From Geobacter metallireducens GS-15 (GTDB lineage: Bacteria; Desulfobacterota; Desulfuromonadia; Geobacterales; Geobacteraceae), in contig NC_007517.1 in the NCBI RefSeq assembly GCF_000012925.1, positions 480,001-512,000 on the forward strand: a stretch of DNA of 32,000 bases. Direction: 5' to 3'. Numbering within the stretch: the first letter of the stretch is position 1; the number at the start of each line of letters is the position of its first letter. Position numbers and translations under genes: made by a program. The notes beneath the pieces were generated by a model. It had not been told where the DNA came from, did no database searches, and saw only the letters and a list, made by a program, of their open reading frames with translations. Shown in pieces: positions 5,890 through 26,790 of this stretch.

Positions 5890-5919
5890 GCAAAAAATCA
5901 GTAAATGTAATTTTTTTTC

Positions 5920-6075: not shown

Positions 6076-6083
6076 TTTACACC

Positions 6084-8295: not shown

Positions 8296-8303
8296 TCTTT
8301 TTT
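8296..8303. repeat. Target-site duplication, right copy (tctttttt)
   Basis: Same as the left copy. Confidence 0.85.
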
Positions 8304-8313
8304 TTGCCGTCAT

Positions 8314-8340
8314 TAAAGTTTTTGCTGCTGTTGCCGATAA
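8314..8340 (+). promoter_or_regulatory. Sigma-28 (FliA) promoter of fliD-fliS
   Basis: TAAA (8314-8317), a 15-nt spacer, then GCCGATAA (8333-8340). This is a perfect consensus match, 19 nt downstream of the IS end. Confidence 0.85.
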
Positions 8341-8428
8341 GATAGATAAAGGGAATCATGGGCAATAGATGGAAAGGGTCCCTGTGTTTGGCGCGGGAAT
8401 TGCTTTCCATTGTTTGGGAGGAAAAGCC

Positions 8429-9847: not shown

Positions 9848-9860
9848 CGAAGGAGGGGGC

Positions 9861-10283: not shown

Positions 10284-10297
10284 AGAGGCCATTGTCG

Positions 10298-10708: not shown

Positions 10709-10737
10709 ATTACGGGCAGTTGGAGAAGAATGCGAGC

Positions 10738-10770
10738 AAGAAGGGCGACAGGTACTCTGTCGCCCTTCTT
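10738..10770. terminator. Bidirectional terminator between the fliS operon (+) and maf (-)
   Basis: aagaagggcgacag-gtact-ctgtcgcccttctt forms a perfect 14-bp stem, sitting between convergent genes. Confidence 0.7.
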
Positions 10771-10795
10771 TGTCAGAAAGAAATGGATTAATGGT

Positions 10796-13315
10796 TCAAT
10801 CATTCGATGGAGCGGCAAGTCCCTCCAATTGTGAAAGTGCAACTCTGTTTGTCGGGTCATTCTCCAGCACCCTGGCAAAAAGATCCCGGGCCGTGTCCGC
10901 AAGCCCGGCATCCCGGCAAAGTATGCCGAGAGTCACCAGCGTTCCCACATCCTTTGGTGCAATGGAAAGGTAACGGTTGAAGGCATCGAAGGCTTCGTCG
11001 TAGCGCCCAAGGGCCTTCAGAATCTCTCCGTAAGGCGAAAGGTAGGCTGGAGACATGCGTGACAGGCACTCAAGGGCCAGCAGGGCGTTTTCAACGTCGT
11101 TGCCTGCAATGGCAAGAGATGCTATCTGCCGTAAAGCGTCTTCAGTCGTTGGGTGGGGAGGGTCGACCAGCAGGTGCTGGTAGCATTCGATCGCTCTGTT
11201 CGGTTCTTGCTGGAGTTCGGCAATGAGGCCGTTGATGAAATAAAGGTAGGGCTCTGCCTTCTCGCGGTCAGGATGGGAGGCAATCCCTGCTGCCATTGCT
11301 TCCAGTTCTTCACGCTCACCCCGCCGGAAGAGTAGCCGCGCTTTGCTCCGGATGTGCTTCAGGTCATAGCCCTTTTCCAGAAGTTCCATCCTGATGGTCT
11401 GCTCATCGGTCATGAGATGGGTAAATTGATCATCAAGCTCGCGGAATTTTCCCAGAATCGCTTCAGAAAGGCATTGGGCAGTGACAGGGTGATTGCGCAG
11501 CCAAAAGCGACCGCGACCCGGTTGCCCGTCCCGTAACCACTGGGAGATGAAGAGGTCGCAGTCCGGCGAAGACTTTTCCTCTTCTATTCTGGCCTCTATC
11601 CTGGACAGTGCGCTGTTTGTCACAGCCAGAAGTTGGATAGTCCCTGCCATGTATGCCTGATAATAGTCTCGCGTTGCTTTCTCGATCTGTTCGTCTGTCC
11701 ACTCCTGTTCCTCTTTTGGTGTTCTAAGAATTGAGAGGAACTTTTTTAGACCAAACTGCTTTACTAGTAGTGAAAAATCTCCATAACGTCGGTCAAGCTT
11801 TCGTTCAATCTTGTCCATCTGCACTTTATGGCGAAAACTGCGCTCCTTGCCATTGCGTCCGAACAACCCATCAGTACACTCCAAGGCCTCTTGAGAGAGT
11901 GAGAGAATCTCCTTGAATTTGTGCTGGGCACGTTCGAGCTCCTTCTTGATTTTGCGATAGTGGCTCAATCGGGCCTTTGAGGTCGGAGGAGGCAGGTATT
12001 TGTCAATGAGTGCTGAAGTGGAGATCGTGTCTTCAGGCAGGTCGATTTCTGAAGGCGGCCGGTATTCGATGAGGGGAATCTTTGCGGCACCCAGAGAGAT
12101 GTTGTAGAGCCGGTGCCCTTTGCTCACAGCCAGTTCGGCCTGGAGCTTGAGAATCTCCAGCGAGTGTGCGTATCCGTGGTTGGTGTCGGCCAACCAGCCG
12201 CCGTTGGTTTCAATTCGGGGAGAAAGTTGGCCTAGGTCAGGCCCTACCTTGTTTTCAGCGCTGCCGGCGGCGTGGGTATGCCCTTCACGGGAGAAACAGA
12301 GGTCTACCCCGGCAAGAACGATGGTTTCACATCCCATGTTCATGGCAATAGAGAGGGCGTAGTTGCTTACTGTTGGTCCCGTATAGAGATGAGTTTCGAT
12401 GTTCAAAGGGGTGGACCAGGGGAAGAGGCTGTCGGTGTAGGCGCTTCTCCCGCCCCACTGCCCCACCAGCAGGGGGGATGCATGGTAGCTGCTGACGAGG
12501 ACCGGAGATTCCTCCATGTCAGCAAAATATAACATCTCACGGCTCACCTCGAAACTGACCTTCTGGGGGTCAACCGTAGCGACTAGGTGAGGAACTATTT
12601 GCTCGCTCTGCAGGATTTTGCTGATTCGGGAAACGGCAATAAGGACAAGACGGTCGCGGTTTTCCCGAACCCACGGCAGGGCTTCGCGGAGCGATGGACC
12701 ACCGGCAAGGATGACGGCGGTTCTTCCCTTAAAGGTGTCGACGAGGGTCCGGGAGAATGCGACACGGTTTTCTGCAAGATTTTCCAGTTGCCTCAGGATG
12801 TATTGGGTGCAGTTGATGGAGGCATGGGTTTCATGGACGAGAGTTCTGACATTCAGATTGATATTCCAGGAGATGTCTCGATACTCGGGGAGATTGGCAT
12901 CGCTTGAAGCGATTGATTCATTAACCCTGACCGCGTCAATGAAAACATACTCGTTGATTTGCAGGTCGGTTGCTATTTCCTCCCAGGTGTCCGGCGTGGC
13001 GATGATCACTTCAGGCGGGAGTTCCTTAAGGATTCCCTCTTCCGAGAGCCGTTCAATCACCTCCGGCAACTCGATGAAAAGATAACGGGATCCGGAGGGA
13101 ATCCCTTTGTTTACAACATAGGTGGGAAACAGCCCTGAATCTGTCCCGATGATGATGTTAAGCTGATATTCGGCAAAGAGTGATTCTCCGTAGGTTGATG
13201 CATAGAGCGAATCGGAGCCGATGGAGTTGAATGCATTCCGGTTTACCTGGTAGAGGTAGCGATCTCCGAAGTCGTTTACCAAAAATGGCCCGAGGTAATT
13301 TCCCGTATCGGACAT
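10796..13315 (-). CDS. maf: Motility-associated factor (Maf/DUF115, MptE-like) flagellin nonulosonate glycosyltransferase with a C-terminal TPR domain
   Basis: The N-terminus has ...NIIIGTDSGLFPTYV.... The central region (AVILAGGPSL...LIAVSRISKIL...HLVATVDPQ...GPTVSNYALSIAMNMGCETIVLAGVDLCF) is typical of Maf. The last ~170 aa are TPR-like (ECYQHLL..., LKALGRYDEAFDAFNRYLSIAPKD..., ARDLFARVLENDP). I use the ATG at 13315; an alternative GTG lies at 13330. Confidence 0.8.
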   Translation of the reverse strand: MSDTGNYLGPFLVNDFGDRYLYQVNRNAFNSIGSDSLYASTYGESLFAEYQLNIIIGTDSGLFPTYVVNKGIPSGSRYLFIELPEVIERLSEEGILKELPPEVIIATPDTWEEIATDLQINEYVFIDAVRVNESIASSDANLPEYRDISWNINLNVRTLVHETHASINCTQYILRQLENLAENRVAFSRTLVDTFKGRTAVILAGGPSLREALPWVRENRDRLVLIAVSRISKILQSEQIVPHLVATVDPQKVSFEVSREMLYFADMEESPVLVSSYHASPLLVGQWGGRSAYTDSLFPWSTPLNIETHLYTGPTVSNYALSIAMNMGCETIVLAGVDLCFSREGHTHAAGSAENKVGPDLGQLSPRIETNGGWLADTNHGYAHSLEILKLQAELAVSKGHRLYNISLGAAKIPLIEYRPPSEIDLPEDTISTSALIDKYLPPPTSKARLSHYRKIKKELERAQHKFKEILSLSQEALECTDGLFGRNGKERSFRHKVQMDKIERKLDRRYGDFSLLVKQFGLKKFLSILRTPKEEQEWTDEQIEKATRDYYQAYMAGTIQLLAVTNSALSRIEARIEEEKSSPDCDLFISQWLRDGQPGRGRFWLRNHPVTAQCLSEAILGKFRELDDQFTHLMTDEQTIRMELLEKGYDLKHIRSKARLLFRRGEREELEAMAAGIASHPDREKAEPYLYFINGLIAELQQEPNRAIECYQHLLVDPPHPTTEDALRQIASLAIAGNDVENALLALECLSRMSPAYLSPYGEILKALGRYDEAFDAFNRYLSIAPKDVGTLVTLGILCRDAGLADTARDLFARVLENDPTNRVALSQLEGLAAPSND

Positions 13316-13333
13316 GTTAGAGCCTTTCACTAT

Positions 13334-15313
13334 TTATTTCCGTTGTTTGGCAGATTTCGCTGATGCTGCAGATATGGAAATGTGCGCCCTCAAAGGGATT
13401 CTGTTGCGCCTGGGTTTGCTTGTTTCATCCATTTCCGATGCGCTGAAGCCGCATCGGAAAAAGTATGACGGACCTACCGGCTTGCAGGTTACCAGGCCGA
13501 GCAGTGCGGAGAGGGAGCGGTCTACGCTAATCTGCAAGATCGAATGTGCATCTCCGATCTCGATTATCCCTTCAGTCACGCCAAGCCCCTGTTTTGCCGA
13601 CACCAGAAAAGAACTCGCCTCACCGTGGAAAAATCTCTTGCCTGCTACAGGAAAGGTTTCCGGATTGTTTCCACCGTTGTGGGCCCGGAAGAAGAGTGTT
13701 GCAGCGTCGAAGGCTTCGGGATTTATGGTGACGTTGCCGAGTCGCAGGGAGCCCACGGGGATCAAAGGCCAATCGAATCGGTAGTCTATGGAAATTGTAG
13801 TGGTGTTGATGTCAATGCCGACCAGTTTCGTTATGGGACCAAGGGGGGGGCTGAATGTGGCCTCAACGGTTACCATTCCGCCTTCAGGATGCCAGCGAAC
13901 CAACGGTTCGACAGGCGCCAAGTCCGTTATCTTGGGCCGTCCATGGGTCTCGAAGACCGCATGCCCCGTATAAAAATCGGCTCCGGCGGTGATGTCGTCG
14001 AAATAGCCGTGATAGAGGGTGCCGCAGAGGCTGCGTTCGTGGATTCGGGAGAAAACGAGGGAGTCAAAGGCCAACCCGCGGCGCAGGTTCAGCTTGAGCC
14101 GCACCCCTGGCGTTTCGATCGTAAGGTAGTGTCCTTCGCGCAGAGCGGAGACTTCAGGGGGGAGGATCTCCACGCCCCCCTCGACAAGCCTCGTTAAATG
14201 CGTTATCCCACAATGGCGGCCAAAGGAGTTGAGGCGGCTTCGGTAGCGTTTCCAACGGCGCGGGGTAATGTGGGTGCGGAAATCGCTGCTCCAGAGGTAG
14301 CAGAGTTCGCGCCACTCCTGGTCCGTGGCATTTCCCTTTGCCAGCAGCGCGTCGTGAATCCGTTGGCAGGCGGAGTTGATGCCGATGTCGTCCCGACCGG
14401 TGACGGCCCATCGGGTGATGTTGTACTTTTCCTGCTTTTTCACCGGGATAGGTGCCTCGGGGGATTCGAGGCTCAGACGGTTTCCGGCTCCCGGCTCATG
14501 AAGCAGGGAGAGGAGTCGTGAGGGAGGAATGAAGGTGAAGCGTCCCTCCTCCAGCAACCGCTCGAAAAGCTCCCTGATCCGTCCCCACTCGTCATGCTCC
14601 ATGACCGCTTCGGTGGTGAAACGACCGGGGCGGAAGTCAAAAATCTCAATATCATTGCCGTAGAGGGGGATGGCGCGGGTCGTGCCGTTGTCGTGCCGGC
14701 CGATAAGGGCAAGGTAGTCGTCCAGTTCCAACTCGCCATGGACATAGCGCTGGAACTTCTGAAAGAAGATGGAGTTGTTCCAGATGACCGGCAGCTCTTC
14801 GCCATGCTGGCCCATGGCGATCTGGGGAAGATAGCGCCATGCCGGATCCCACTGGGGGTGATGGTAGGCGGGGTTGTCCCATTCCATGACCATGGCCTCG
14901 AAGCCCGCCTCGCGGTAGTGTCCGATGAGCCCGGCGGAGTAAGCCTGTTCGTTGACCAGAACAATGCGTGGGCGCAGTCCCAGAAGCCGCTCATAGGTCT
15001 GGTTGCCGATGCGCAGGTTCTGCCGGTTCACTTCAGCCGGCACCAGGGGGCCGATCATCTGGGAGTAGCCGCTTCCCACCAGCTCGCATTGCCCCGAGCA
15101 GAGTTCCCGAAGTTCCTCCACCCAAGCCGGGTCGATGGCCGCCACGGTCTCGAGGGTATAGCCGGTGATCTCGATGCCGAAGGGGAGGTTTAGGTCGCGG
15201 GCCAGCCGAAGCAGAGGCCAGTAACAGCGGCGGACCACCTCGGGGCGCAACTCTTCCTCGATGGAAGAGAAGGCCAGGTTCAGGTGGAAGATGGTATAGA
15301 GAGATAGTGACAT
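13334..15313 (-). CDS. GH57-like (beta/alpha)7-barrel glycoside hydrolase/transferase family protein
   Basis: 659 aa. The N-terminal ~200 aa resemble GH57 (FHLNLAFSS..., GQCELVGSGYSQMIGPLVP, LVNEQAYSAGL...YREAGFEAMVMEW). The large C-terminal region is unassigned. The start overlaps the ATP-grasp stop by 1 nt (TAATG). Confidence 0.55.
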   Translation of the reverse strand: MSLSLYTIFHLNLAFSSIEEELRPEVVRRCYWPLLRLARDLNLPFGIEITGYTLETVAAIDPAWVEELRELCSGQCELVGSGYSQMIGPLVPAEVNRQNLRIGNQTYERLLGLRPRIVLVNEQAYSAGLIGHYREAGFEAMVMEWDNPAYHHPQWDPAWRYLPQIAMGQHGEELPVIWNNSIFFQKFQRYVHGELELDDYLALIGRHDNGTTRAIPLYGNDIEIFDFRPGRFTTEAVMEHDEWGRIRELFERLLEEGRFTFIPPSRLLSLLHEPGAGNRLSLESPEAPIPVKKQEKYNITRWAVTGRDDIGINSACQRIHDALLAKGNATDQEWRELCYLWSSDFRTHITPRRWKRYRSRLNSFGRHCGITHLTRLVEGGVEILPPEVSALREGHYLTIETPGVRLKLNLRRGLAFDSLVFSRIHERSLCGTLYHGYFDDITAGADFYTGHAVFETHGRPKITDLAPVEPLVRWHPEGGMVTVEATFSPPLGPITKLVGIDINTTTISIDYRFDWPLIPVGSLRLGNVTINPEAFDAATLFFRAHNGGNNPETFPVAGKRFFHGEASSFLVSAKQGLGVTEGIIEIGDAHSILQISVDRSLSALLGLVTCKPVGPSYFFRCGFSASEMDETSKPRRNRIPLRAHISISAASAKSAKQRK

Positions 15314-16527
15314 TAAGGGACCGTCTCGAAGCGGATCACCTGACGAGTTGCATCAATGCGTGACCACGCGTCTTTTTCATCCTCGCCAACAGCGATCACC
15401 CAGCAGCACCGTTTACCGTTGTCTATCATGGGCTCAACCCGATCACCTACAGCCTTCGTAATCAATATCTGCTCGATCCCGGGTAATGCGCGCGCTTCTT
15501 CTATTCCACTGATGGATCTGATTATGCCGGGTTCGGGGAAAATTCCTGCACAGATGGATGTCCTATCATGCTTGGCGGCAAGGAGGCTCTCGTCCAGTTG
15601 CTCTCCCATGGCCAACTTCATGACGGCTTTGATTGGGTCTTTCCCGGAACTCAGAGGTGTCGTGTACTGGGAATGGAATCCACCGCTCAGCCGTGCCGGC
15701 ATCTCGAGTATCATCGGCCCCTGATCGGTCAGTATCATGTCGGCTTTCGCGGGGCCAAAATCAATACCTAACGAGTCGGCAGCAGCATCGACGACCTCAC
15801 AGATGCGCTTTTGTGTTTCCTTGTCGAGGTTCGAGGGGTCCACATGGGCTGTTTCTATGGCGTAGGGAGCGAAACCGAAGTGCCTGTCAGCCAGACTAAC
15901 GTGATAATGCTTCCCCTTCCAAATGATGGTTTCGACGCTCTGTTCTTTCCCCACTACGAATTGCTCGATAATTGCCGTCCCGGTTCGCGAGGTGGCGCAG
16001 GCGGCTTTGAAGGCGGCGGGAAGCTGATCAGGCCGGTCGATGCGCATGCTCCCCCGTGATGCAGCGCCATCAACTGCTTTTACGATGGCAGGGAAGCCTG
16101 TATGAACAAGAATTTTTTGAGCTTCCTCCAGCGTCGACGCTTCGGCGCTCCATGGGGTCGGAATTTTGTCCCGCAGCCATCTTTCTTTCATAAGGGCCTT
16201 GTTGTTCGACCGTCTGGCCACCTCCACCGGAACCCCTGGCAAGCCGAGTTCCTCGCAGACCGCTGCAACCGTAATTGCCACATCTGCGCCGGCAAAGGCC
16301 CCTTTCAGCCCAACCCTTTTCCCGTGCTCCCTCGCCCATGCCACATGCCCCTCGACATCTTTGACGTCCAGTACGAGGTGCTCGTCCGCCAGTTGGAACC
16401 CTGGGGCCTCGGGATTGCGGTCACTGGCGATGACATAGTATCCGAGGGCGCGGGCTCGCTCTAATGCGGGTATCTGCATTATGCCGGCACTGACTACGAG
16501 AATGGCGGGGCGTTTTTCAGAGTTCAT
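15313..16527 (-). CDS. ATP-grasp domain ligase
   Basis: A pre-ATP-grasp region (ILVVSAGIMQIPALERARALGYYVIASD) is followed by NKALMKERW...GFPAIVKAVDGAASRGSMRI...IIEQFVVGKEQSVE.... I prefer the ATG at 16527 (RBS aaggaa); the ORF track start at 16602 would overlap the SDR gene by 29 nt. Confidence 0.8.
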   Translation of the reverse strand: MNSEKRPAILVVSAGIMQIPALERARALGYYVIASDRNPEAPGFQLADEHLVLDVKDVEGHVAWAREHGKRVGLKGAFAGADVAITVAAVCEELGLPGVPVEVARRSNNKALMKERWLRDKIPTPWSAEASTLEEAQKILVHTGFPAIVKAVDGAASRGSMRIDRPDQLPAAFKAACATSRTGTAIIEQFVVGKEQSVETIIWKGKHYHVSLADRHFGFAPYAIETAHVDPSNLDKETQKRICEVVDAAADSLGIDFGPAKADMILTDQGPMILEMPARLSGGFHSQYTTPLSSGKDPIKAVMKLAMGEQLDESLLAAKHDRTSICAGIFPEPGIIRSISGIEEARALPGIEQILITKAVGDRVEPMIDNGKRCCWVIAVGEDEKDAWSRIDATRQVIRFETVP

Positions 16528-16573
16528 GGGGAAATTCCTTACCTGATGGTTACTTTTGGGCTGTTGGAATCTT

Positions 16574-17416
16574 TTATTCCAGGTTTGATTCAGGGTCGTC
16601 ATAGAAGTGCAGAAGATCGGTCAACGTTTCTGGGCTCTGGTATGCCGCCCATGTCCCGTCGGGCCACGAGTGCCCTTCTATAACGTATCCGTCGTCGCAG
16701 AAAATCACGTTGCCAGTCAGGTGCCGTTGGGGGATACATAGGGCAATGGCCGATTCCACGACCCCCTCTACCGTAGCGAACCGCTTGGTGGGAGTATGCG
16801 CCAGTATCGAAGCAGCTCTGCGTGACAGTTGCCCGACATCGTCCCGCAACAAGTGCCGATTGAGCGGTGTTTCAACGGTTCCCGGGGCCAACCCGTTGAC
16901 ACGGACCCCAAAACGGGCCAGTTGCGCTGCGGAACTTTTGACTAGACCTTCAAGGCCATGTTTTGATGCGACATAGGCGTGAGAACCTTCCAGGGAAACC
17001 CTGGATGCATCGGAACACAAGTGGACGAGATGACCGTGGCGCTGCTTGACAAACAGACGCGCGAATCCGGCTGTCAGAAGAAATGCGCCGGTGAGGTTTG
17101 TGTTTATGACTCGCGACCAGTCGTTTAAAAGCTCTGGAATATCTTCTTGCCCGAGCTTCATCACGGCATGGTGTGTCCCGGTAAAATTGAAGGCCACATC
17201 GATGCGGAGGTTGCGTTTTCCCAGAGCGGTGAAGAAGTTGCTGACCGAAGACGGGTCGGTAACGTCCACTGGCAGGTGAGGGAGGCCGATCTCGGGATCT
17301 TTTCGCCCCGCGACGATGCAGGCCGCCCCTACTGCCGTTGCTGCTTGGGCGAAGGCCCGCCCCAAGACCCCGCTTGCCCCCAGAACGACGATGTTCATGC
17401 CACTAAGAATTCCCAT
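16574..17416 (-). CDS. Short-chain dehydrogenase/reductase (classical SDR)
   Basis: Contains the NIVVLGASGVLGRAF nucleotide-binding motif and the YVASKHGLEGL (YxxxK) catalytic motif. An RBS (ggaagg) lies upstream, and the start overlaps the upstream gene by 14 nt. Confidence 0.85.
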   Translation of the reverse strand: MGILSGMNIVVLGASGVLGRAFAQAATAVGAACIVAGRKDPEIGLPHLPVDVTDPSSVSNFFTALGKRNLRIDVAFNFTGTHHAVMKLGQEDIPELLNDWSRVINTNLTGAFLLTAGFARLFVKQRHGHLVHLCSDASRVSLEGSHAYVASKHGLEGLVKSSAAQLARFGVRVNGLAPGTVETPLNRHLLRDDVGQLSRRAASILAHTPTKRFATVEGVVESAIALCIPQRHLTGNVIFCDDGYVIEGHSWPDGTWAAYQSPETLTDLLHFYDDPESNLE

Positions 17417-18824
17417 GGGCTACCTTCCATCCGAAGAAAGATTGTGCATTAGCATAGAAAAGGTCACGGCAAAACTCATCGATGTCAACCTGATCGGGGT
17501 TGAAAAGACCGGATTCCAGATCGTCAGCCAAACGTAGCGTTATGGCTTTACGGAAATATTCGTGACGGGCCGTTGAGAGAAAACTTCGGGAGTCTGATGC
17601 CATGCCGACGAAAGTTCCGAGAACACCAACAGCGCATTGAGCGTTCAGGTGGTCCTCTATGCCGTATATCTGGTCGAGAAACCACCAAGGGGGACCGTGC
17701 TGAACTTTCCCTCGAATTCCCTCTCCCCAAAAACTTCCGGCAATGGTCGCGAACATTAACGTGTCACGGGGATTCGAATTGAACAGAATCGTTTTCGGCA
17801 ACCGCTCGGAGGTGTCCAGTTGATCGAGGAACGCAACGAGAGACTCCCCCTGCGGGAAATCTCCTATAGAGTCGCAACCTGCATCCAGGCCGTATGATGA
17901 AAAAATTCGGGTGTTGTTGTTCCTGCGAGCCCCAAGGTGCAACATCATCGTCCAGCCGGATTCGTGATTCCATTCTGCGATCTGGCGCATGAACCAACTG
18001 CGCCATTTTTCGAGATCATCAGCGTCGATATCGGAAGAACTTAAAAGCAACCGGCTGAAGATGGTGGTGGCTTCGGCGTCCGAGCAAGGAGTTGCGTAGC
18101 ACCGGTCCATCCCATGGTCGGAGACCCGGCATCCGAGTTTGTGGAAGAATTCATATCGGACCCGAAGCGCCTCCATGAATGTTTGTAACGACTCTATTGC
18201 GATGCCGGAACATGCTTCGAGCCGTGAGCGCCAATCGTGAAAATTCTGGCGGGTGTGGAGGCAAAGCGCGGAGTCAGGGCGAAAGGTCGGGAAAACCCGA
18301 AAAGAGACCTCCTTATCTTCTACAAGTTGGCGGTGCGCTTCCAACTGGTCGGCTGGATCGTCAGTGGTGCAGAGGACTTCGACGCCAGCTCTTGCCAGTA
18401 ACTTCCGTGGCCGGAAGTTTTCGGTCGCGAGCATCGAGTTCGCCTCTTCCCATATGCACTCTGCAGAAGACGGTGTCAGCGGAGCCGTTATGCCGAAAGT
18501 CCGCTTGAGCTCAATCTGGCACCACGCCTGCATTGGGCTTGAGGCCATCCGCGTGATGGTGCGAGCCCACGCATCAAACCGTTCTTTTGGCGACGCTGAG
18601 CCGGTGCACAGATCCTCGCGCTCACCGGCTATCCGCATGGCTCGCCATTTATAGTGGTCTCCTTCGATCCACAGTTCCGAAAGATCCCTGAAGTGGGCAT
18701 TACTGGCAAGCCTTGCCGGCGGCAGATGGCCGTGATAGTCAATGATTGGCAAGGAGGCATGTCGCTCGTACAGGGTAAGGGCGTTTTCTCTTACAGATGC
18801 CGTGAAATTACGCCTAATCGTCAT
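17403..18824 (-). CDS. uxaC: Glucuronate (uronate) isomerase UxaC-family protein
   Basis: 473 aa. LYERHASLPIIDYHGHLPPARLASNAHFRDLSELWIEGDHYKWRAMRIAGEREDLCTGSASPKERFDAWA...QIELKRTFGI is a clear UxaC N-terminal signature, including the HxH metal motif. Confidence 0.8.
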   Translation of the reverse strand: MTIRRNFTASVRENALTLYERHASLPIIDYHGHLPPARLASNAHFRDLSELWIEGDHYKWRAMRIAGEREDLCTGSASPKERFDAWARTITRMASSPMQAWCQIELKRTFGITAPLTPSSAECIWEEANSMLATENFRPRKLLARAGVEVLCTTDDPADQLEAHRQLVEDKEVSFRVFPTFRPDSALCLHTRQNFHDWRSRLEACSGIAIESLQTFMEALRVRYEFFHKLGCRVSDHGMDRCYATPCSDAEATTIFSRLLLSSSDIDADDLEKWRSWFMRQIAEWNHESGWTMMLHLGARRNNNTRIFSSYGLDAGCDSIGDFPQGESLVAFLDQLDTSERLPKTILFNSNPRDTLMFATIAGSFWGEGIRGKVQHGPPWWFLDQIYGIEDHLNAQCAVGVLGTFVGMASDSRSFLSTARHEYFRKAITLRLADDLESGLFNPDQVDIDEFCRDLFYANAQSFFGWKVAHGNS

Positions 18825-18873: not shown

Positions 18874-19758
18874 TCAGCGTCGAACAAAACGGATCAACTG
18901 TGTCGAGCCTAGATCACCCAGTTTGGCCAGCGTATCGAACAACTGCTTGTAGGGCTGCGGGATGATACTTCCTGGGGCGTTTGCCCCAAATGACGCAACT
19001 TGAACGGCGGTAAACCCGTAACGATCAAATTGACGCAGAATGCCTTCCCTGCTTGGAAGCTGAAGATGCTGAACAGGAAGAAAATGGTGCCATTGCGGTC
19101 CTAGAATTTGGGCATGAACATGGGCGCGGGGAGTTTGGATAAGAACCTGACCTCCTGATTTCACTCTCCGGGATAGCGTTGTCAGTAATCCGGGGAGATC
19201 GGCTATATGTTCGTAGACATCCCAAAGAGTGACGATGTCGGTTAGACTCTCTCCTGCCAGCCACTCGTTGATTGGTTCGAAGTTGTGCCCCCGAACCGCA
19301 AGATGAAGAGTGTCTTCTCGTGGGTAATCGACAGCCGTTGTCTTTCCCATATTCGGTTGTGTTGCCCGGCAGACGTCAAGGAAAACGCCATCGTATGCAC
19401 CGAAATCCACAAGGTCTTTGCCTTGCTCCAACTCTAGGCCTATATCGTTGATGCTTAAACGGTATTCCCGCTCTCTGGTTTCCCGCCACTCATCGCTATA
19501 TCGCTTTCCATCATTTGCGTCGGTGTTTGTCGCTGCCATTTTATGGTGGACTGAATAGTCAGAATAAAATGCATTCAGGCGCTCAATGTCCGGTTCGCGG
19601 CCTATGGACCATGACCCACACGCTCCACAGAGAATCCAGGTCGTCTCGTAAGGCTGCTGACCCGACGTTACTGTCGTTTCGGTCAATGTCTCCCCGCATA
19701 TCCGGCAGACCGTAGTTTGTCTGTCCCCACAGAATGATTTTATTGTCTCGGCAACCAT
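18874..19758 (-). CDS. Class I SAM-dependent methyltransferase with an N-terminal Cys4 zinc ribbon
   Basis: CRICG...CGACG is followed by LVDFGAYDGVFLD (motif I) and DIVTLWDVYEHIADLPGLLTTLSRRVKSGGQVLIQTP. I prefer the ATG at 19758 (RBS aaagga, 6-nt spacing) over 19824. Confidence 0.8.
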   Translation of the reverse strand: MVAETIKSFCGDRQTTVCRICGETLTETTVTSGQQPYETTWILCGACGSWSIGREPDIERLNAFYSDYSVHHKMAATNTDANDGKRYSDEWRETREREYRLSINDIGLELEQGKDLVDFGAYDGVFLDVCRATQPNMGKTTAVDYPREDTLHLAVRGHNFEPINEWLAGESLTDIVTLWDVYEHIADLPGLLTTLSRRVKSGGQVLIQTPRAHVHAQILGPQWHHFLPVQHLQLPSREGILRQFDRYGFTAVQVASFGANAPGSIIPQPYKQLFDTLAKLGDLGSTQLIRFVRR

Positions 19759-19768
19759 TTCGTATCCT

Positions 19769-20686
19769 TTAATCAGTTCGCCGTGAATAAAGACATACTT
19801 CACGACCAATGTTGAGATTGGCAAGGCTTTGGTACAACGATCTCTTGACTGATGTTAGCCCAGCGGCGGCGAGGTTGGTTTCGAACTGCATGCGTTTCGC
19901 GTGACATGCACGACCTCGCGTGTCATTTCCTATATAGTTGTCACCCATAAGCAGGAACAGATCGATAGGAAAAGTTGATTCCTTGCACGTAACTTCAAAT
20001 CCGCTTCTCGTCAACAAATGTTCCAGGGATTCGAAGTCGAAGAAATTGATGTGATGGGGAGGGGCAACCCACCACGGTTGGAAATTACAGGCCGTGCGAA
20101 GGGCCAGTTGAAATGGGTTGTAGTCGTTCGGAACGACGACGCAGAGAATTCCCTCGGGGGTTAGGTTCTTTCGGACAATGCCGAGGAAATGTTCAGGATC
20201 GGGGATGTGCTCCAGTACCGCACTCATGTGTATGACATCAAATAGCCCGAGTTGAATCGCAGTGTCGGTCGAGAAAAACTCCTCGATGATGTCGAGGCCC
20301 ATTTCCCGGCTGTGAGCCGCTGCTCGGGCCGAGGGTTCAATCCCGACTGTTTCCCATCCGCGGTCTTTGCCATGTTTCAGGAAAAAGCCGGGGCCTGACC
20401 CTATATCGAGGATACGGCGGCGCTTTTGGGGGAGCAGTTCTTCAAAGGTGTCGTAACGATCACCATAAACCAGATTCCACCAGTCCAGATCCTCCCGGTA
20501 ACGTTCCAGGTAAAGAGGTTTCTCGGATGTATAGTATTCGTGCCGATAAACCTCTTCCAGTTCTTCCGCTGACGGAATCGGAACGATATGCTTAAAACCG
20601 CATTTGCTGCAGTCGATGACATCAAATCCCTTGACTGAGTCGCAGACTTCACCTTCATGATCACACCAGGTTTTCTTTTCAGCCAT
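19769..20686 (-). CDS. Class I SAM-dependent methyltransferase with an N-terminal zinc ribbon (paralogous architecture to 18874-19758)
   Basis: CDHEGEVC...CSKCG is followed by RILDIGSGPGFF and FDVIHMSAVLEHIPDPEHFLGIVRKNLTPEGILCVVVPN. The ATG at 20686 overlaps the pseF-pseG stop by 8 nt; an alternative TTG lies at 20716. Confidence 0.8.
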   Translation of the reverse strand: MAEKKTWCDHEGEVCDSVKGFDVIDCSKCGFKHIVPIPSAEELEEVYRHEYYTSEKPLYLERYREDLDWWNLVYGDRYDTFEELLPQKRRRILDIGSGPGFFLKHGKDRGWETVGIEPSARAAAHSREMGLDIIEEFFSTDTAIQLGLFDVIHMSAVLEHIPDPEHFLGIVRKNLTPEGILCVVVPNDYNPFQLALRTACNFQPWWVAPPHHINFFDFESLEHLLTRSGFEVTCKESTFPIDLFLLMGDNYIGNDTRGRACHAKRMQFETNLAAAGLTSVKRSLYQSLANLNIGREVCLYSRRTD

Positions 20687-22460
20687 GAGAAGAATGCATC
20701 CTTTCCAGTTTTTCAACGATCTTCGTGGCTATCCGCGTCGCACCGTACCCATCGACAGTGGCGCAGGCGCGGCGTCCCACTTCGTGTCTGAGTTCCCGAG
20801 AGTCAAGAAGTGATAATGTCGATTCGATAATCCTCTCATTGCTGCATTCTTCGAGTACGCCGCAACTGAAAGCAAGCCGGTCATCGACAAACTTTGAGGC
20901 CGAACGGGCGTGATCCGGAGTCAGGCATAAATACACTGCCGGTACGCCGGATGCTGCCAACTCGTAAGCTGTTACACCAAAAGACGCGATGGCCAGATCG
21001 GCTTGTCGCATGAGTGATGCCATGTCGCTTACTTCCCGTTCGATACGGTAGTGGCGTCGGGCTTGGGAGAGAAACTGCTGCAGGTCCTCTTCATGGACAA
21101 AACCTGCCCCTATAACCACGATCGTTTCAAAATCATTCTGCAATTCGTCAAGGACGCGGAGAACCCTAACAGTGAAATTCGCAGGGTCACTCCCTCCCAT
21201 GGTGAGAAGGAGTGCTGGAGGATTGTTGTTGCGCGGGGGGCAGGGCGCGCAGAATTGTTTGCGGAGTAAAACCCACTCCCAACCGCTGCAGATCTCACCG
21301 TTGAAATTATTCCAATTCAGTTCTGAAATCTGAGGGATGGGAGGATAGAAAAGGAGATCGGCTGCAAGGCGTCGAGGCGTAGGATCATCTATGCCAACGA
21401 CCAGAATGCCATCCTCGCGCCAGGAATCGACTTTTTCCACGGGCAAATCGTTCCGTATATCGAGTATCAGGACGTCGGGGTGATGGCGCGAAATCAGTCC
21501 ATCCATCCATTCCCCTTCGTCTGCATCTTCCTGCCGTTCGAGCGGAAAATCCGCTTGGCGCACCATTTTCATGCCGGGTTCGCCGCTGGCCATGGCGAAG
21601 ATTATACCGCAGCCCTGCTTCTCTCGCAGTTCTCCTGCAAGAGCCAGGCAACGAACCACATGCCCGAGGCCGGTACGACTATCGCCATCGCAACGAATGA
21701 GAACCTTGTGGCTCCGGTCGGTTGCTTTTTTCTGATAGACATGTTGATTGATTTGAAGCAGGTGAGGATTGTTCCTGAGAAGTCGTACGACGTCGGCAAT
21801 ATCGGCATCCCCCGCAGGAACGCCGAGAAGCCGGTAAAGTTCATCGAAAAATTGCACATCCGCCGGAGTATCGACAGACAGCCGGGCGCCTTTGAAGCGG
21901 TGTTCGTTGCCGACTGGAATCCGGGCAATATGAAATTTGTCCGGGTGTGCAATGAAGTAGGCCGTTACATGCTCAATGGCCACCGGATCATCGGGGGCTT
22001 CGGTCATGAGCCTCTTCAGGGCTCCACGCGTGAAGGTGCAGAACCCTTCGTGAATGGAATTAATCCCTGCTTCGATAGTGCAGTACTCAGCCCCTTCCTG
22101 CAAGAGGGTTCGCACCAACCGGTCCATTACCTCGGGATCCACCAAGGGAGCATCGCCAGTAACACGAATGATGACATCGGCATCAACCTCTTCTGCCGCC
22201 TTGTTGAAGCGCAAGAGGACATTGTCCTCGGAGCCTCTCACCAGGGTAACCCCTCGCGTTTGGGCGAAGTCAACCAGAGGGTCGTCGCAGGGCTTGTCCG
22301 ATGTGGCGATAACTATGTCATCGAGAGTGCGGCTGCGGCGAAGGCGGTCAATAATATGCTCAAGCAGCGGTTTGCCCGCCACTGTCATGAGCACCTTTCC
22401 CGGCAGGCGCGAAGAACCCATGCGGGCTTGAATGACAGCTACAATTTTCTTTTTAGCCAT
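20679..22460 (-). CDS. Bifunctional cytidylyltransferase (PseF/SpsF-like) fused to UDP-2,4-diacetamido-2,4,6-trideoxy-L-altropyranose hydrolase (PseG-like)
   Basis: The N-terminal half has KIVAVIQARMGSSRLPGKVLMTVAGKPLLEHIIDRL...IRVTGDAPLVDP (CTP-transferase-3 type). From about aa 250 it has VLIRCDGDSRTGLGHVVRCLALAGEL and LLTMGGSDPANFT (PseG/SpsG type). Confidence 0.8.
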   Translation of the reverse strand: MAKKKIVAVIQARMGSSRLPGKVLMTVAGKPLLEHIIDRLRRSRTLDDIVIATSDKPCDDPLVDFAQTRGVTLVRGSEDNVLLRFNKAAEEVDADVIIRVTGDAPLVDPEVMDRLVRTLLQEGAEYCTIEAGINSIHEGFCTFTRGALKRLMTEAPDDPVAIEHVTAYFIAHPDKFHIARIPVGNEHRFKGARLSVDTPADVQFFDELYRLLGVPAGDADIADVVRLLRNNPHLLQINQHVYQKKATDRSHKVLIRCDGDSRTGLGHVVRCLALAGELREKQGCGIIFAMASGEPGMKMVRQADFPLERQEDADEGEWMDGLISRHHPDVLILDIRNDLPVEKVDSWREDGILVVGIDDPTPRRLAADLLFYPPIPQISELNWNNFNGEICSGWEWVLLRKQFCAPCPPRNNNPPALLLTMGGSDPANFTVRVLRVLDELQNDFETIVVIGAGFVHEEDLQQFLSQARRHYRIEREVSDMASLMRQADLAIASFGVTAYELAASGVPAVYLCLTPDHARSASKFVDDRLAFSCGVLEECSNERIIESTLSLLDSRELRHEVGRRACATVDGYGATRIATKIVEKLERMHSSHG

Positions 22461-23534: not shown

Positions 23535-25553
23535 TCATGCTTTCCGTGCAGCAATTTTCATCTGTCCGTGATATTCGTCGCCAGAACTCACTTCAAGACA
23601 CTGGAATCCATACTTTTTCAATAGAATTCTTATCGAGATGAAATCATAGAGCACGGGATGGAGGGGGGCGTCGAGATGACGCCATTGCTCGCCGGCATAT
23701 GCGGCATCGGCCGAATTTATGTTGGGCGTATTGAGCAGGATGAGCCCCCCTTGCTTGAGAATTCTGCGGAGAATGGTTAGAAAAGGTGCAGGATTTGCAA
23801 TATGTTCGAGGACATCCCACGCGGTGACAACATCAAAAGTTTCGTCGTCAAAGCTGGATTCGAGCAGTGTTCCCGTGGTTACCGCCAAACCATACTTTTC
23901 TCGCGCAACTTCTGCGGCTTTGTCTGAAATCTCGATGCCGCATACATCCCAATACCTGAGGCTGGCTTCCCAGAGGAACGCCCCGGTGGAGCAGCCAATG
24001 TCCAGTAATTTGCCTCGGGGGAATTTCAACTCTTCTGGAACATACTTTTCGACAAAATCCATCCGTCGCTGATGGAGAAAAAACGAGTTTGGATTTGGCG
24101 TGTCCAGATTCGGATCCCATCCCATTTTCTGTCTGTGTTGGGGGGAATAGTAAATCTCATTGTAAAATTTGGTCAGGTATTCATCTGTGGGGCAAGGATT
24201 GAGAAAGACCGCCTGGCAATCCATGCATTGATCAAAGGTAGATTTGTAATCTTCATGGCCCAGGAACGAAAACTTTAAATTGAATTCCGTGCCTCCACAA
24301 ACAGGGCATGTGTTCAAGTCTTTGCAGTAATCGGCATAGTTATCTTCATCTATTGCCAGTATGCTGCGCGACGTTTGAGTTTTTGGTTGTTGCGGGCGGT
24401 TCAAAAAGTTGATCGCTGCAAGTTTTTCCACTATCTGGTCGGCCCGGTGCCGATAGGTATGGTGGCGGAGGGTATGATCGTACAGGTCGGCAACCAGTTC
24501 TCGCCGCTCCTGCGCATGCGTAAGGAAATACTCACCTTTCTCCGCAAATTCGTCGAGATTTCTGAAGGTGATCTCTTCCCAGTGCGCAGGAAAAGCCCGA
24601 ATCATGTCGTCCCGGTAATCGTTCAGCATGAATGCCTTGGATGCGTAAGCGTCAAACGGTCGATTGTTGATGGCTTTTTCAAGCTGCAGGGAAGAGATGT
24701 TAAGATTCAATGCGTATTGCTGGAATGCCTTTGACAGTTCAGTGCCGTAGGGAACTTTTTCATGGAAAATGGCGTTCGGTTTGTCCCAACCATTCCCTCC
24801 GCCATAAATGTGCAGATCCACGCCTTCAATGCTGTCGAGGATATATTTCCTCATGACAGTGCTGCCCTTGCCGTGAATCTTGTAATAGATCATCTGCCAG
24901 AAACTGGCGGGTTCAGTCGTGTACACCTGATGGACAGCGCGATACTCCGGGGTTGAAAAAAACTGTTTGCAGATTTCAAATGTGGGAACTTCCATGTTAT
25001 GGAGCTTGGAATAGATTACCTCGTCAATGAATTTGTCTACGAGTTCTATCCCTACACAGTTCTGTTCAACGTGAGCCGATACTCCACCGACAAAACAGAC
25101 TGAAGATTCTATGCAGGGAGAGTCGAGTGCGATTGGGTGAAACCAGGTAGGATCAGTTGCCAAAAGAATATGGTCGCAGTTCTCCGTCCCGTCATTCCGA
25201 AGCAACTCCAGAAAACTATCATCCCAGACGAATTCATAATAATATTCCGGGAAATTGTTGATCTCGTCGGAGAGTCCATCGTTTCTCGCTAGATAGGGAC
25301 AATCGTAATGGAGCGAGACCAGCGGGATTCCCAATTCGCGGAGGGCATAACCGTTGGGGGATTTGCAGAACCCATTGTAACCATAGGCAAGAACGAAATC
25401 AGGCTGAAAAGAGCGTAGTTTGGTAAAGTCGAGTCCTTCCGTAGTCAGGTCGATTCCCCAAACTTCATGGCCTGCTTCGCGAAATCCGGTGATGTATCCA
25501 TCTATGACGAAAGGGGCAATAACCCCGGATGTCCTGAAAATTGCAATTTTCAT
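23535..25553 (-). CDS. Fusion protein: CgeB-like glycosyltransferase (DUF3880 / Glyco_trans_1_2 type) plus Zn-ribbon class I SAM methyltransferase
   Basis: In the N-terminal ~390 aa, ...LNLNISSLQLEKAINNRPFDAYASKAFMLNDYRDDM...FRNLDEFAEKGEYFLTHAQERRELVADLYDHTLRHHTYRHRADQI is CgeB-like. The C-terminal part has CPVCGG...CMDCQ, LLDIGCSTGAFL and FDVVTAWDVLEHIANPAPFLTILRRILKQGGLILLNTPN. Confidence 0.75.
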   Translation of the reverse strand: MKIAIFRTSGVIAPFVIDGYITGFREAGHEVWGIDLTTEGLDFTKLRSFQPDFVLAYGYNGFCKSPNGYALRELGIPLVSLHYDCPYLARNDGLSDEINNFPEYYYEFVWDDSFLELLRNDGTENCDHILLATDPTWFHPIALDSPCIESSVCFVGGVSAHVEQNCVGIELVDKFIDEVIYSKLHNMEVPTFEICKQFFSTPEYRAVHQVYTTEPASFWQMIYYKIHGKGSTVMRKYILDSIEGVDLHIYGGGNGWDKPNAIFHEKVPYGTELSKAFQQYALNLNISSLQLEKAINNRPFDAYASKAFMLNDYRDDMIRAFPAHWEEITFRNLDEFAEKGEYFLTHAQERRELVADLYDHTLRHHTYRHRADQIVEKLAAINFLNRPQQPKTQTSRSILAIDEDNYADYCKDLNTCPVCGGTEFNLKFSFLGHEDYKSTFDQCMDCQAVFLNPCPTDEYLTKFYNEIYYSPQHRQKMGWDPNLDTPNPNSFFLHQRRMDFVEKYVPEELKFPRGKLLDIGCSTGAFLWEASLRYWDVCGIEISDKAAEVAREKYGLAVTTGTLLESSFDDETFDVVTAWDVLEHIANPAPFLTILRRILKQGGLILLNTPNINSADAAYAGEQWRHLDAPLHPVLYDFISIRILLKKYGFQCLEVSSGDEYHGQMKIAARKA

Positions 25554-25593: not shown

Positions 25594-26790
25594 TTATTTC
25601 GGCGCCGAAGGGGGGCATAGAAGCTCCTGGAGTGCTGTTATGACCCGGTCCTGGTCGATCTCGGCGAGGCCGGCATAGAGCGGCAGAGTGATCGCTTCCC
25701 GGTAATACTGCTCCGCTTGAGGGAAATCTCCTGCATCGAAACCGTTTGCGCGATAGTAGGGTTGGATATGCACAGGGATGTAATGAACATTAACCAGGAT
25801 GCCACGCTGCCGGAGAGCCTCGAACACCTCTTTCCGCCCCTTGTGTCCGCTGCCGGGCTCTCCAGCCTGGAGGCGAATGACATACAGGTGAAAAGCGGAG
25901 TAGCTATCGGGATGCTGGAACGGCAGAACAAACGGGTCATCGCGAAGTGCCTCGTCATACCGCTTCGCCAGGTGGTGCCGTCTCTCCACGAACTCATCCA
26001 GCCGCGTCATTTGGCTCACCCCCAGGGCCGCCTGGATGTCGGTCATCCGGTAGTTGAACCCAAGTTCGATTTGCTCGTAGTACCAGGGGCCGTGGGATTC
26101 TCCCGCCATGAGGGCCGGGTCGCGGGTGATGCCGTGGCTGCGGAGCCGGACCAGCCGCTCGTGCAGTTCCGCGCTGTTAGTCAGGACCATCCCCCCTTCG
26201 CCAGTGGTGATGATCTTGACGGGGTGGAAGCTGAAGACCGTCATGGCGGAATGGCGGCAATTGCCGACCGGTTCACTCTTGTACCGTCCGCCGATGGCGT
26301 GGGAGGCATCCTCGATGACGGTGAAACCGTACCGCCCGGCAAGGCGGCCGATGGCCTCCATGTCGCACGACTGCCCCGCGAAATGGACCGGGATCACCAC
26401 CTTCGGCAGCTTCCCCTCCCGTGCGGCCCGCTCCAGCTTCTCCTCCAGCCGTTCGGCGCTCATGTTGTAGGTGCGGGGATCGATGTCCACGAAGTCCACG
26501 GTGGCGCCGCAGTAGAGCCCGCAGTTGGCGGAGGCCACAAAGGTGTTGGGGGAGGTCCAGAGGATGTCGCCGGGACCGAGCCCCGCCGCGAGGCAAGCCA
26601 TGTGGAGGGCCGAGGTGGCACTGTTCACTGCCACGCCATGGGCGGTGCCGCAGTAGCCGGCCACGGTCTGCTCGAAGCGCTCCACTGTGGGGCCTTGGGT
26701 GAGCCAGTCGGAATTGAGAACGTCGACGACGGCCTGGATGTCGGCGGGACTGATGCTCTGGCGGCCGTAGGGAATCGGAGCGCTTCTCAT
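25594..26790 (-). CDS. pseC: UDP-4-amino-4,6-dideoxy-N-acetyl-beta-L-altrosamine transaminase (DegT/DnrJ/EryC1 family)
   Basis: 398 aa with IPYGRQSISPADIQAVVDVLNSDWLTQGPTVERFE...NSATSALHMACLAAGLGPGD...FSFHPVKIITTGEGGMV (PLP lysine context). It pairs with pseB through a 4-nt overlap. Confidence 0.9.
   Translation of the reverse strand: MRSAPIPYGRQSISPADIQAVVDVLNSDWLTQGPTVERFEQTVAGYCGTAHGVAVNSATSALHMACLAAGLGPGDILWTSPNTFVASANCGLYCGATVDFVDIDPRTYNMSAERLEEKLERAAREGKLPKVVIPVHFAGQSCDMEAIGRLAGRYGFTVIEDASHAIGGRYKSEPVGNCRHSAMTVFSFHPVKIITTGEGGMVLTNSAELHERLVRLRSHGITRDPALMAGESHGPWYYEQIELGFNYRMTDIQAALGVSQMTRLDEFVERRHHLAKRYDEALRDDPFVLPFQHPDSYSAFHLYVIRLQAGEPGSGHKGRKEVFEALRQRGILVNVHYIPVHIQPYYRANGFDAGDFPQAEQYYREAITLPLYAGLAEIDQDRVITALQELLCPPSAPK

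Follow-up and report, generated by a model that had tools for sequence, protein, structure and literature searches.

Nonulosonate (NulO) decorations exert control over the assembly of flagella, the charge of the surface, the attachment of phages and recognition by the immune system; the diversity of their N-acyl groups is chemically known, while its genetics is largely unexplained. In Campylobacter and Helicobacter, CMP-pseudaminic acid is made by the canonical pathway PseB, PseC, PseH, PseG, PseI and PseF. In Shewanella oneidensis MR-1, the operon sfmABCDE (SO_3261-3265) adjoins maf and is needed for flagellin modification (Bubendorfer et al. 2013; PMC3765264). Here we analyzed a stretch of 32,000 nt from Geobacter metallireducens GS-15 (contig NC_007517.1, positions 480,001 to 512,000; hereafter the window, whose positions are used throughout), in which genes for a uronate isomerase (UxaC), a short-chain dehydrogenase/reductase (SDR), an ATP-grasp ligase and a protein resembling glycoside hydrolase family 57 (GH57-like) lie between methyltransferase genes and maf. 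Judged from its genes, the locus appears to be a nonulosonate tailoring operon of the known sfm type with an uncharacterized core enzyme family, the GH57-like proteins. It points to a route in which a sugar acid is made and then joined through an amide bond at the expense of ATP, a step that would stand in for PseH.

The operon sfmABCDE encodes a 290-amino acid NeuB-domain protein, a thiamine pyrophosphate (TPP) enzyme (SfmB), an SDR, an S-adenosylmethionine (SAM) methyltransferase and an ATP-grasp_4 protein (PMC3765264). The Shewanella flagellin O-glycan is a 274-Da mono-N-acetyl nonulosonate (C11H18N2O6) bearing a nitrogen-free, methylated outer moiety of C9H16O7, C10H18O7 or C11H20O7, which is very easily lost in the ion source; the ATP-grasp mutant shows a slightly smaller mass loss than the other four sfm mutants and keeps its filament (PMC3765264). 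The likeness to the window lies in architecture and lengths: both present a NeuB without a SAF domain (290 amino acids in Shewanella and 286 in the window), an SDR (255 and 280), an ATP-grasp_4 protein (412 and 404) and a SAM methyltransferase, with maf adjacent and pseB and pseC nearby. The slot that UxaC takes in the window is occupied in Shewanella by SfmB. By this analogy, sfmABCDE is the closest studied relative of the locus and the only one that we found. A preliminary description of this stretch had stated that its four central genes match no known accessory set, which was too strong since sfmABCDE is an experimentally implicated relative by architecture.

Whether the four genes and the two methyltransferase genes upstream of them form the tailoring part of a pseudaminic-acid-type flagellin glycosylation operon is, in our judgment, evenly balanced. 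Under this proposal, UxaC would convert a free hexuronate to a keto-uronate, in the simplest case D-glucuronate to D-fructuronate or galacturonate to tagaturonate, and the coupled SDR would reduce the keto group to yield an aldonic acid (mannonate or altronate) that the Methyltransf_23 enzymes would O-methylate. The ATP-grasp enzyme, which is of the L-amino acid ligase (LAL) type, would activate the aldonic carboxylate as an acyl phosphate and couple it through an amide bond to the 4-amino group of the sugar made by PseB and PseC, or to the equivalent 7-amino group of the nonulosonate, replacing the acetylation by PseH. The diverged PseG-like, SAF-less NeuB and PseF-like enzymes would complete a CMP-activated N-aldonoyl nonulosonate, which Maf would then attach to flagellin. 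The GH57-like enzyme would act on a part common to all variants of the cluster and be functionally coupled to N-acylation. The predicted mass of the glycan is that of a 274.116-Da core plus a 178.048-Da hexonoyl group plus n x 14.016 Da. Among the products imagined in the preliminary description, an amide-linked sugar-acid substituent seems to fit best.

The same arithmetic can be applied to Shewanella. A hexuronate joined to a pyruvate-derived C2 unit, reduced and amide-linked, corresponds to C8H14O7, and the addition of one to three O-methyl groups gives the three reported formulae. This fit, if it holds, ties the TPP variant of the cluster to the same logic as the UxaC variant, and the outer moiety of the Shewanella flagellin, unidentified since 2013, becomes a testable structural hypothesis.

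How the genes are partitioned can be seen from the sequences of the SDR and of the ATP-grasp protein. The SDR matched adh_short_C2 (119 bits) and adh_short (110 bits), and the classical glycine (GASGVLG) and YxxxK (YVASK) motifs are seen in its translation. Its nearest relatives in NCBIfam and the PDB belong to the sugar-acid dehydrogenases: D-mannonate oxidoreductase (the best family), gluconate 5-dehydrogenase, KduD and sorbitol dehydrogenase. The ATP-grasp protein matched ATP-grasp_4 (45.6 bits, cutoff 27), LAL_C2 (72.6 bits, cutoff 29.4) and ATP-grasp_3, and it reached no NCBIfam equivalog, all matches being far under cutoff. Its best PDB relatives are the L-amino acid ligase BL00235 (3VOT, 7.6e-20) and then BacD. 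With these ligases (BL00235, BacD/YwfE) it shares the ATP-grasp fold and LAL_C2, at E-values of only 1e-20 to 1e-9, and it would differ from them in its predicted substrates, an aldonic acid and an amino sugar instead of two amino acids. Cj1438 of the Campylobacter jejuni capsule, an ATP-grasp glucuronamide ligase likened here by description, is a precedent for an ATP-grasp enzyme acting on the carboxylate of a sugar acid.

Pairwise comparisons across related loci, whose genes we describe below, showed that the ATP-grasp proteins have a median identity of 74% among loci of the UxaC type and of 28-34% against other cassette types (transketolase, TPP and KduI), with corresponding values of 69% and 27-29% for the SDRs. 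The transketolase, TPP and DXS cassette types resemble each other. In contrast, the GH57-like proteins are ~46-52% identical in every comparison, loci of the UxaC type included. SDR and ATP-grasp sequences that track the cassette suggest that these two enzymes handle a cassette-specific molecule, whereas the cassette-independent identity of the GH57-like protein suggests that it handles something common to all variants. The four genes had previously been described as one module. Instead, a methyltransferase, UxaC, the SDR and the ATP-grasp protein form an exchangeable cassette that co-varies in sequence, and the GH57-like gene is an invariant core partner that is combined with many other cassettes.

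The UxaC protein matched PF02614 with 635 bits over profile positions 5-464 of 464 and the NCBIfam glucuronate isomerase equivalog NF002794 with 522 bits (cutoff 387), and it aligned over its full length with Salmonella UxaC (3IAC). It keeps the motifs HxH (DYHGHL), GDHYKWR, TTDDP, LHLGAxRNNNTR, WWFxDQ (WWFLDQ) and DSRSFLS of 3IAC, among which we take HxH, WWFxD and others to be active-site motifs of the amidohydrolase type. The protein is predicted to isomerize glucuronate or galacturonate. We found UxaC in none of the ~80 loci detected through the GH57-like protein, which at first gave the impression of an add-on specific to G. metallireducens; this impression was overturned by a search centered on UxaC itself. 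The contexts of nine relatives were looked up (eight proteins, one of them on two contigs; loci L081-L090), with identities to the UxaC of the window of 86, 63, 57, 57, 52, 51, 50 and 49%. All nine contexts present the order Methyltransf_23-UxaC-SDR-(methyltransferase)-ATP-grasp beside SAF-less NeuB, PseF/G-like and GH57-like genes, with the Methyltransf_23 gene directly upstream of UxaC in each and PseB and PseC among the neighbors. UxaC and the SDR overlap by 4-14 nt in most of the nine contigs. One relative comes from the cultured Roseateles asaccharophilus, where it lies in a nonulosonate cluster. The locus L081 adjoins Maf, flagellin, FlaG, FliD and FliS, and the loci L084 and L089 adjoin flippases (polysaccharide). 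Such a recurrent gene order in nine independent contigs, which come from distant lineages, is more than chance.

These contexts bear directly on the possibility that an ordinary pair of genes for hexuronate catabolism, UxaC and the SDR, came to lie in the flagellar island by chance, with the ATP-grasp and GH57-like genes as unrelated passengers. The score of UxaC above the cutoff of the glucuronate isomerase equivalog and the best family match of the SDR to D-mannonate oxidoreductase are what such a pair would present, and the two steps are those of hexuronate (Ashwell) catabolism in Enterobacteria, where aldose-ketose isomerization is followed by reduction of the keto group (UxuB/UxaB) to an aldonate. 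The window differs from that pathway in having no UxuA/UxaA dehydratase, KdgK, KdgA, transporter or regulator, and in its reductase, an SDR that scores under the cutoff of every NCBIfam family that it matched. Likewise, no dehydratase, kinase, aldolase, transporter or regulator was found in the nine related UxaC contexts, which are biosynthetic in all cases. A relative with 44% identity, taken as a control, lies behind a LacI regulator with no NulO genes; such a LacI-linked setting was encountered only at this level of identity. In addition, the genes of the window are translationally coupled, with no internal promoter or terminator signal above background. We consider a chance landing extremely improbable. 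We rejected the reading of the locus as a catabolic island on this genomic context; a self-contained catabolic unit, which would have spoken against the preliminary description, was not encountered among the relatives looked up.

Three loci of Verrucomicrobiota and Acidobacteriota (L011, L012 and L019) present an SDR and an ATP-grasp protein of the UxaC type, 53-69% identical to those of the window, but UxaC is missing from the surrounding 10 kb. These lineages degrade sugars, and a housekeeping UxaC encoded at another place in their genomes might serve instead. All nine UxaC relatives found in NulO clusters carry the database name "glucuronate isomerase", which would mislead predictions of hexuronate or pectin catabolism. 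More generally, when genes of such clusters are automatically annotated as "glycoside hydrolase family 57" or "glucuronate isomerase", genome and metagenome models should not take this as evidence for the use of pectin, hexuronates or starch.

We identified 79 loci through the GH57-like protein, each with up to 10 kb of flanking sequence on either side. At least one NulO core gene was present in 59 of them, flagellar genes in 16 and Maf in 8. Upstream sequence of at least 4 kb was available for 65 loci; 53 of these carry an ATP-grasp gene upstream on the same strand (immediately adjacent in 34), and an SDR lies upstream in 42. The genes usually follow the order PseB, PseC, SAF-less NeuB, cytidylyltransferase, in some cases a class-III aminotransferase and an aldo-keto reductase (AKR), PseG-like and Methyltransf_23, followed by the variable cassette, SDR, ATP-grasp and GH57-like genes. 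In place of UxaC, other loci present KduI/IolB, a split transketolase, a TPP enzyme resembling acetolactate synthase (ALS) or DXS, an AKR, a GFO/IDH/MocA oxidoreductase or a second NeuB, and the variable cassettes also hold assorted methyltransferases and radical-SAM enzymes. The enzymes that take the place of UxaC all work on a free sugar or uronate, at its aldehyde. The TPP enzyme variants were found in 12 related loci, and a plasmid of Solidesulfovibrio carbinolicus provides a cultured example of the transketolase cassette, for which PGAP gives only generic gene names. The preliminary description had placed the module in flagellin glycosylation specifically. This does not extend to the family, since GH57-like proteins are spread over many phyla of bacteria as well as archaea, and their genes often have polysaccharide genes as neighbors; in the loci of Acidobacteriota, glycosyltransferases, AsnB and a flippase lie downstream, indicating that the target is a polysaccharide. 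It is to nonulosonates, and not strictly to flagella, that the module is linked. In the literature searched, no publication was found that connects a uronate isomerase with pseudaminic acid or with the glycosylation of flagellin, that connects GH57 with pseudaminic or nonulosonic acids or, among the papers listed, with flagellin, that joins pseudaminic acid with ATP-grasp and transketolase, or that names the locus tags Gmet_0447-0452.

One variant is informative as to which chemistry is constant. An AMP-binding (adenylating) enzyme replaces the ATP-grasp protein, KduI and an SDR precede the GH57-like gene, and the product of the latter is a fusion with an N-acyltransferase domain of the AAC(3) type (PF02522; protein P0264, at positions 5609-8482 of L091 and 2005-4878 of L092). 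This variant supports the activation of a carboxylate followed by the N-acylation of an amino sugar as the constant chemistry, and the fusion itself supports a coupling of the GH57-like protein to the N-acylation step. Several loci also present insertions between the ATP-grasp and GH57-like genes: a PIG-L de-N-acetylase and a formyltransferase in L051, L052, L059 and L072 (at ~8.4-10.0 kb in L052), and a formyltransferase only in L055. Their hosts are Desulfuromonas, Pelobacter, Syntrophomonas and Syntrophobacteraceae. These insertions suggest a swap of an acetyl for a formyl group on the same sugar.

The GH57-like open reading frame is 100% identical to Gmet_0448. Its match to Glyco_hydro_57 (56.9 bits) covers residues 27-164 only, corresponding to profile positions 44-190 of 291, and no NCBIfam model matched the protein. 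In its AlphaFold2 (AF2) model (predicted local distance difference test, pLDDT, 86; predicted TM-score, pTM, 0.88), a (beta/alpha)7-barrel is predicted to be followed by helical and beta-sandwich domains. A Foldseek search with this model gave full-length top matches to 1K1X (E 8e-22) and to GH38 mannosidases, with query TM-scores (TMq) of up to 0.66. The 4-alpha-glucanotransferase of Thermococcus litoralis (TLGT; GH57, 1K1W/1K1X) and the GH38 alpha-mannosidases, its best sequence and fold matches, have the same three-domain architecture and a similar length. The GH57-like protein differs from them in its ~12-13% identity, in motifs of its own and in its setting, the genes being found in nonulosonate clusters and not in alpha-glucan clusters. 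In a profile alignment, Glu122 and Asp221 fall on Glu123 and Asp214 of TLGT, which we take to be the catalytic nucleophile and the acid/base, respectively. Both residues are invariant in 139/139 members of the family, and the same holds for an SDxRTH motif and for KKQxKYNxxRW, a loop rich in Lys and Arg at residues 292-302. The family has sharp limits: a search of 1.84 billion representatives at E<=1e-30 gave at least 701 clusters at 50% identity, with hosts in Desulfuromonadia, Acidobacteriota, Verrucomicrobiota, Chloroflexota, Actinomycetota, Firmicutes, Cyanobacteria and the archaea Methanothrix and Methanocalculus.

The enzyme is almost certainly catalytically active. The nonulosonate context makes a non-glucan substrate likely, one that is probably anionic; a starch-like substrate is very unlikely. 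A family of this size with invariant catalytic residues likely has a new substrate. The enzyme may free a reducing uronate from an activated form, process the acylated nucleotide sugar or transglycosylate. The idea that it is a de-N-acetylase, which was raised by the related barrel fold, was set aside because the invariant pair is the Glu/Asp of GH57 and not a metal triad. Three cyanobacterial GH57-like genes (L060, L064 and L065) have no NulO genes within 10 kb and are instead flanked by a solute-binding protein, a hybrid histidine kinase, a GAF adenylate/guanylate cyclase and a membrane transporter, such that the family may have a second, unrelated context in Cyanobacteria.

Two specific roles of the GH57-like protein can be weighed against this evidence. 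The first is that the cassette builds a second acidic or polyhydroxy sugar, which the GH57-like protein attaches glycosidically to the nonulosonate or to flagellin as a retaining transglycosylase, with the ATP-grasp enzyme acting elsewhere (for instance on an ester or lactone). The invariance of the catalytic Glu and Asp of GH57, a full-length fold that resembles a glucanotransferase, itself a transglycosylase, and the ready loss of the Shewanella outer moiety in the ion source, as expected of glycosidic substituents, all speak for such an attachment. We nevertheless find it unlikely: the donor sugar would be set by the cassette, with which the GH57-like sequence shows no co-variation, no nucleotide-activation gene lies beside the cassette, the products of UxaC and the SDR are open-chain acids and as such poor glycosyl donors, and it is carboxylate activation, by ATP-grasp or AMP-binding enzymes, that is conserved. 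The second role, which is compatible with the amide model, is the hydrolysis of an alpha-linked activated uronate or sugar, such as UDP-glucuronate, to supply the free reducing substrate that UxaC and the enzymes replacing it all need. A free aldehyde is what each of the alternative cassette enzymes works on, cassette type makes no difference to the GH57-like protein, and its Lys/Arg-rich loop would suit an anionic or nucleotide substrate. Geobacter is not known to import or catabolize hexuronates, and the need for an internal source that follows from this counts for the same role. This release of a uronate is a rather unlikely role, against which stands the fusion to an aminosugar N-acyltransferase domain, pointing to the amine acceptor side and not to the acid side; in addition, no UDP-glucose dehydrogenase is seen in the clusters.

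The NulO core genes of the operon were compared with the canonical pathway. PseB and PseC reach equivalog level as they do there (TIGR03589, 534 bits against a cutoff of 408; TIGR03588, 568 bits against 424), domains resembling PseG, PseI and PseF are present, and Maf is the presumed transferase (PF01973 MptE-like, DUF115, 150 bits against a cutoff of 34.6, with a weak match to the NCBIfam model FlagModPseD). The operon differs from the canonical pathway in having no PseH, in the fusion of PseF to PseG, in its six extra tailoring genes and in the divergence of its remaining core proteins. The NeuB-type synthase scored 171 against the PseI equivalog (cutoff 340) and 168 against the NeuB equivalog (cutoff 400), and it has no SAF domain; it is 62-75% identical to its homologs in related loci. 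In the literature searched, SAF-less NeuBs are noted only as an uncharacterized "environmental" group (PMC8208679). Within the fusion, CTP_transf_3 spans residues 7-201, with 27.5 bits against the PseF equivalog (cutoff 206), and the PseG-like domain (TIGR03590, residues 252-514) reaches 135 bits, under its cutoff of 153.6. No GNAT or hexapeptide acetyltransferase domain was found with Pfam and NCBIfam in any open reading frame of the operon. The missing PseH, together with PseG-, PseI- and PseF-like proteins that score below cutoff, fits a precursor with a bulky N-acyl group other than acetyl, and it is because PseH is absent that we place the ligation on the free amine of the pseudaminic acid precursor.

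The free amine also bears on a different use of the ATP-grasp enzyme, in which it would amidate the C-1 carboxylate of the nonulosonate, or C-6 of the uronate, with a small amine to give a carboxamide in the manner of Cj1438. Such a reaction is within the repertoire of a generic carboxylate-amine ligase, and class-III aminotransferases, which are possible amine makers, occur in many related loci. The window itself, however, contains no class-III aminotransferase or decarboxylase, and the absence of PseH from the operon would leave the sugar amine unacylated. The outer moiety of Shewanella, moreover, is nitrogen-free, and its 274-Da core has one acetyl for two nitrogens. A carboxamide product seems to us decidedly unlikely.

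Several observations weigh against the amide-linked sugar acid. The Sfm proteins were likened to those of the window by architecture and protein length, and no Sfm enzyme has been biochemically characterized. No GH57-like gene is reported in the sfm operon, of which sfmE seems to be the last gene, and the Shewanella flagellin papers make no mention of genes SO_3266-3269. Such a labile outer moiety as that of Shewanella would more typically be held by a glycosidic bond, although lactonization can also cleave aldonamides, and the match to its formulae is not unique, as di-O-methyl-heptonoyl and dideoxy-nononoyl groups also fit. The nearest solved relatives of the ATP-grasp protein ligate amino acids, so that an amino acid could serve here as the acid or as the amine. 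A gene for PseH could lie in another part of the genome, and we know of no source of free glucuronate in Geobacter. Furthermore, the amide model assigns the GH57-like enzyme no defined step, and the cyanobacterial loci described above present its gene away from NulO genes.

Extending the amide model beyond G. metallireducens, the GH57-like protein and a carboxylate-activating partner could define a pan-prokaryotic, modular pathway to N-(polyhydroxyacyl) nonulosonates, in which interchangeable aldehyde-processing cassettes diversify the acyl chain. The GH57-like protein would then be a new catalyst of the GH57/GH38 fold acting on a nucleotide-activated or nonulosonate-type anionic substrate, the 236/250/264-Da moiety of Shewanella would be one product of the pathway and the hexonoyl group of G. 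metallireducens its analog. We put this forward tentatively, as possible rather than probable. The same logic seems to span Proteobacteria, Acidobacteriota, Verrucomicrobiota, Firmicutes, Cyanobacteria and methanogens.

The 12 genes of the operon, all on the minus strand, run from pseB to maf (27815 down to 10796) with gaps and overlaps that are mostly tiny (Table 1). A check of the open reading frames against Pfam placed the four central genes on the minus strand, between the methyltransferase genes and maf, where they had first been reported, and profile searches with Pfam and NCBIfam confirmed their domain assignments. The junctions also agree with those given earlier: UxaC and the SDR overlap by 14 nt (17403-17416), and the ATP-grasp and GH57-like genes share the A of a TAATG. 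PseB and PseC overlap by 4 nt, and Maf starts 3 nt past the stop codon of the GH57-like gene. The two Methyltransf_23 genes flank the four-gene block upstream and Maf flanks it downstream.

Table 1. Genes of the G. metallireducens operon in order of transcription, with window positions.
Gene product	Positions	Strand	Match and remarks
PseB, UDP-GlcNAc 4,6-dehydratase (inverting)	26787..27815	-	Pfam Polysacc_synt_2; first gene of the operon
PseC aminotransferase (to UDP-4-amino-4,6-dideoxy sugar)	25594..26790	-	Pfam DegT_DnrJ_EryC1
Glycosyltransferase-like + methyltransferase fusion	23535..25553	-	Pfam Glyco_trans_1_2/DUF3880 + Methyltransf_23
NeuB-type nonulosonate synthase, SAF-less, 286 amino acids	22453..23313	-	Pfam NeuB, 205 bits
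PseF-like cytidylyltransferase + PseG-like GT28 fusion	20679..22460	-	Pfam CTP_transf_3; TIGR03590
Methyltransferase MT1	19769..20686	-	Pfam Methyltransf_23; probable start ATG at 20686
Methyltransferase MT2	18874..19758	-	Pfam Methyltransf_23 only; first gene of the UxaC-type cassette
UxaC uronate isomerase, NulO-cluster clade, 473 amino acids	17403..18824	-	PF02614
Classical SDR, predicted keto-reductase, 280 amino acids	16574..17416	-	adh_short_C2/adh_short
ATP-grasp, predicted carboxylate-amine ligase of L-amino acid ligase type	15313..16527	-	ATP-grasp_4/3 + LAL_C2
GH57-like three-domain protein, 659 amino acids	13334..15313	-	Glyco_hydro_57; Gmet_0448
Maf (motility-associated factor), predicted flagellin nonulosonate transferase	10796..13330	-	MptE-like + TPR tail; last gene of the operon

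Some gene starts were revised relative to the list of open reading frames. The ATP-grasp frame as listed (16602..15313, 429 amino acids) gives a 29-nt overlap with the SDR, which is probably an artefact of the caller: homologs are 403-404 amino acids long, and a start at Met26 (position 16527), which is preceded by an AAGGA motif, leaves a gap of 46 nt. The start of MT1 was placed at 20686 because its homologs are 304-305 amino acids long. This protein is 50-73% identical to homologs found directly downstream of PseF/G in most related loci. A start of MT2 at 19758 gives 294 amino acids, and its homologs have 294-296. Scanning the operon for promoters and terminators gave fewer matches than shuffled sequence and no internal signal above background, which is consistent with one long operon and adds nothing further. 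The only sizeable intergenic gap of the operon, of 221 nt, follows the fusion of the glycosyltransferase-like and methyltransferase domains, and the N-terminal half of this fusion has a 39% identical homolog beside Maf in a locus of a Geobacter metagenome-assembled genome (L067).

The plus-strand side of the window contains flgI, flgK, flgL, flagellin, an ISL3 element, fliD and fliS, and motA, motB and a PilZ gene lie beyond PseB. The PilZN1-PilZ (YcgR-like) protein adjoins motB/motA just upstream of the glycosylation operon (28186-28965 and 29050-30624). The flagellin open reading frame as listed (5784-6911) has a TTG start, and its Flagellin_N domain begins only at residue 105, which suggests that the true start is probably ~100 codons downstream. 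Between the flagellin gene, which ends at 6911, and fliD, which starts at 8369, lies an apparently intact insertion sequence of the ISL3 family (6970-8295), with a 407-amino acid transposase (7069-8292) and 24-nt terminal inverted repeats that are 92% complementary (6970-6993 and 8272-8295). Finally, G+C content is 47-50% at 8000-11000, 19000-20000 and 24000-25000 and 55-64% elsewhere in the window. Parts of the flagellar glycosylation island, as these low-G+C stretches may show, could be mosaic in origin or have been acquired horizontally.

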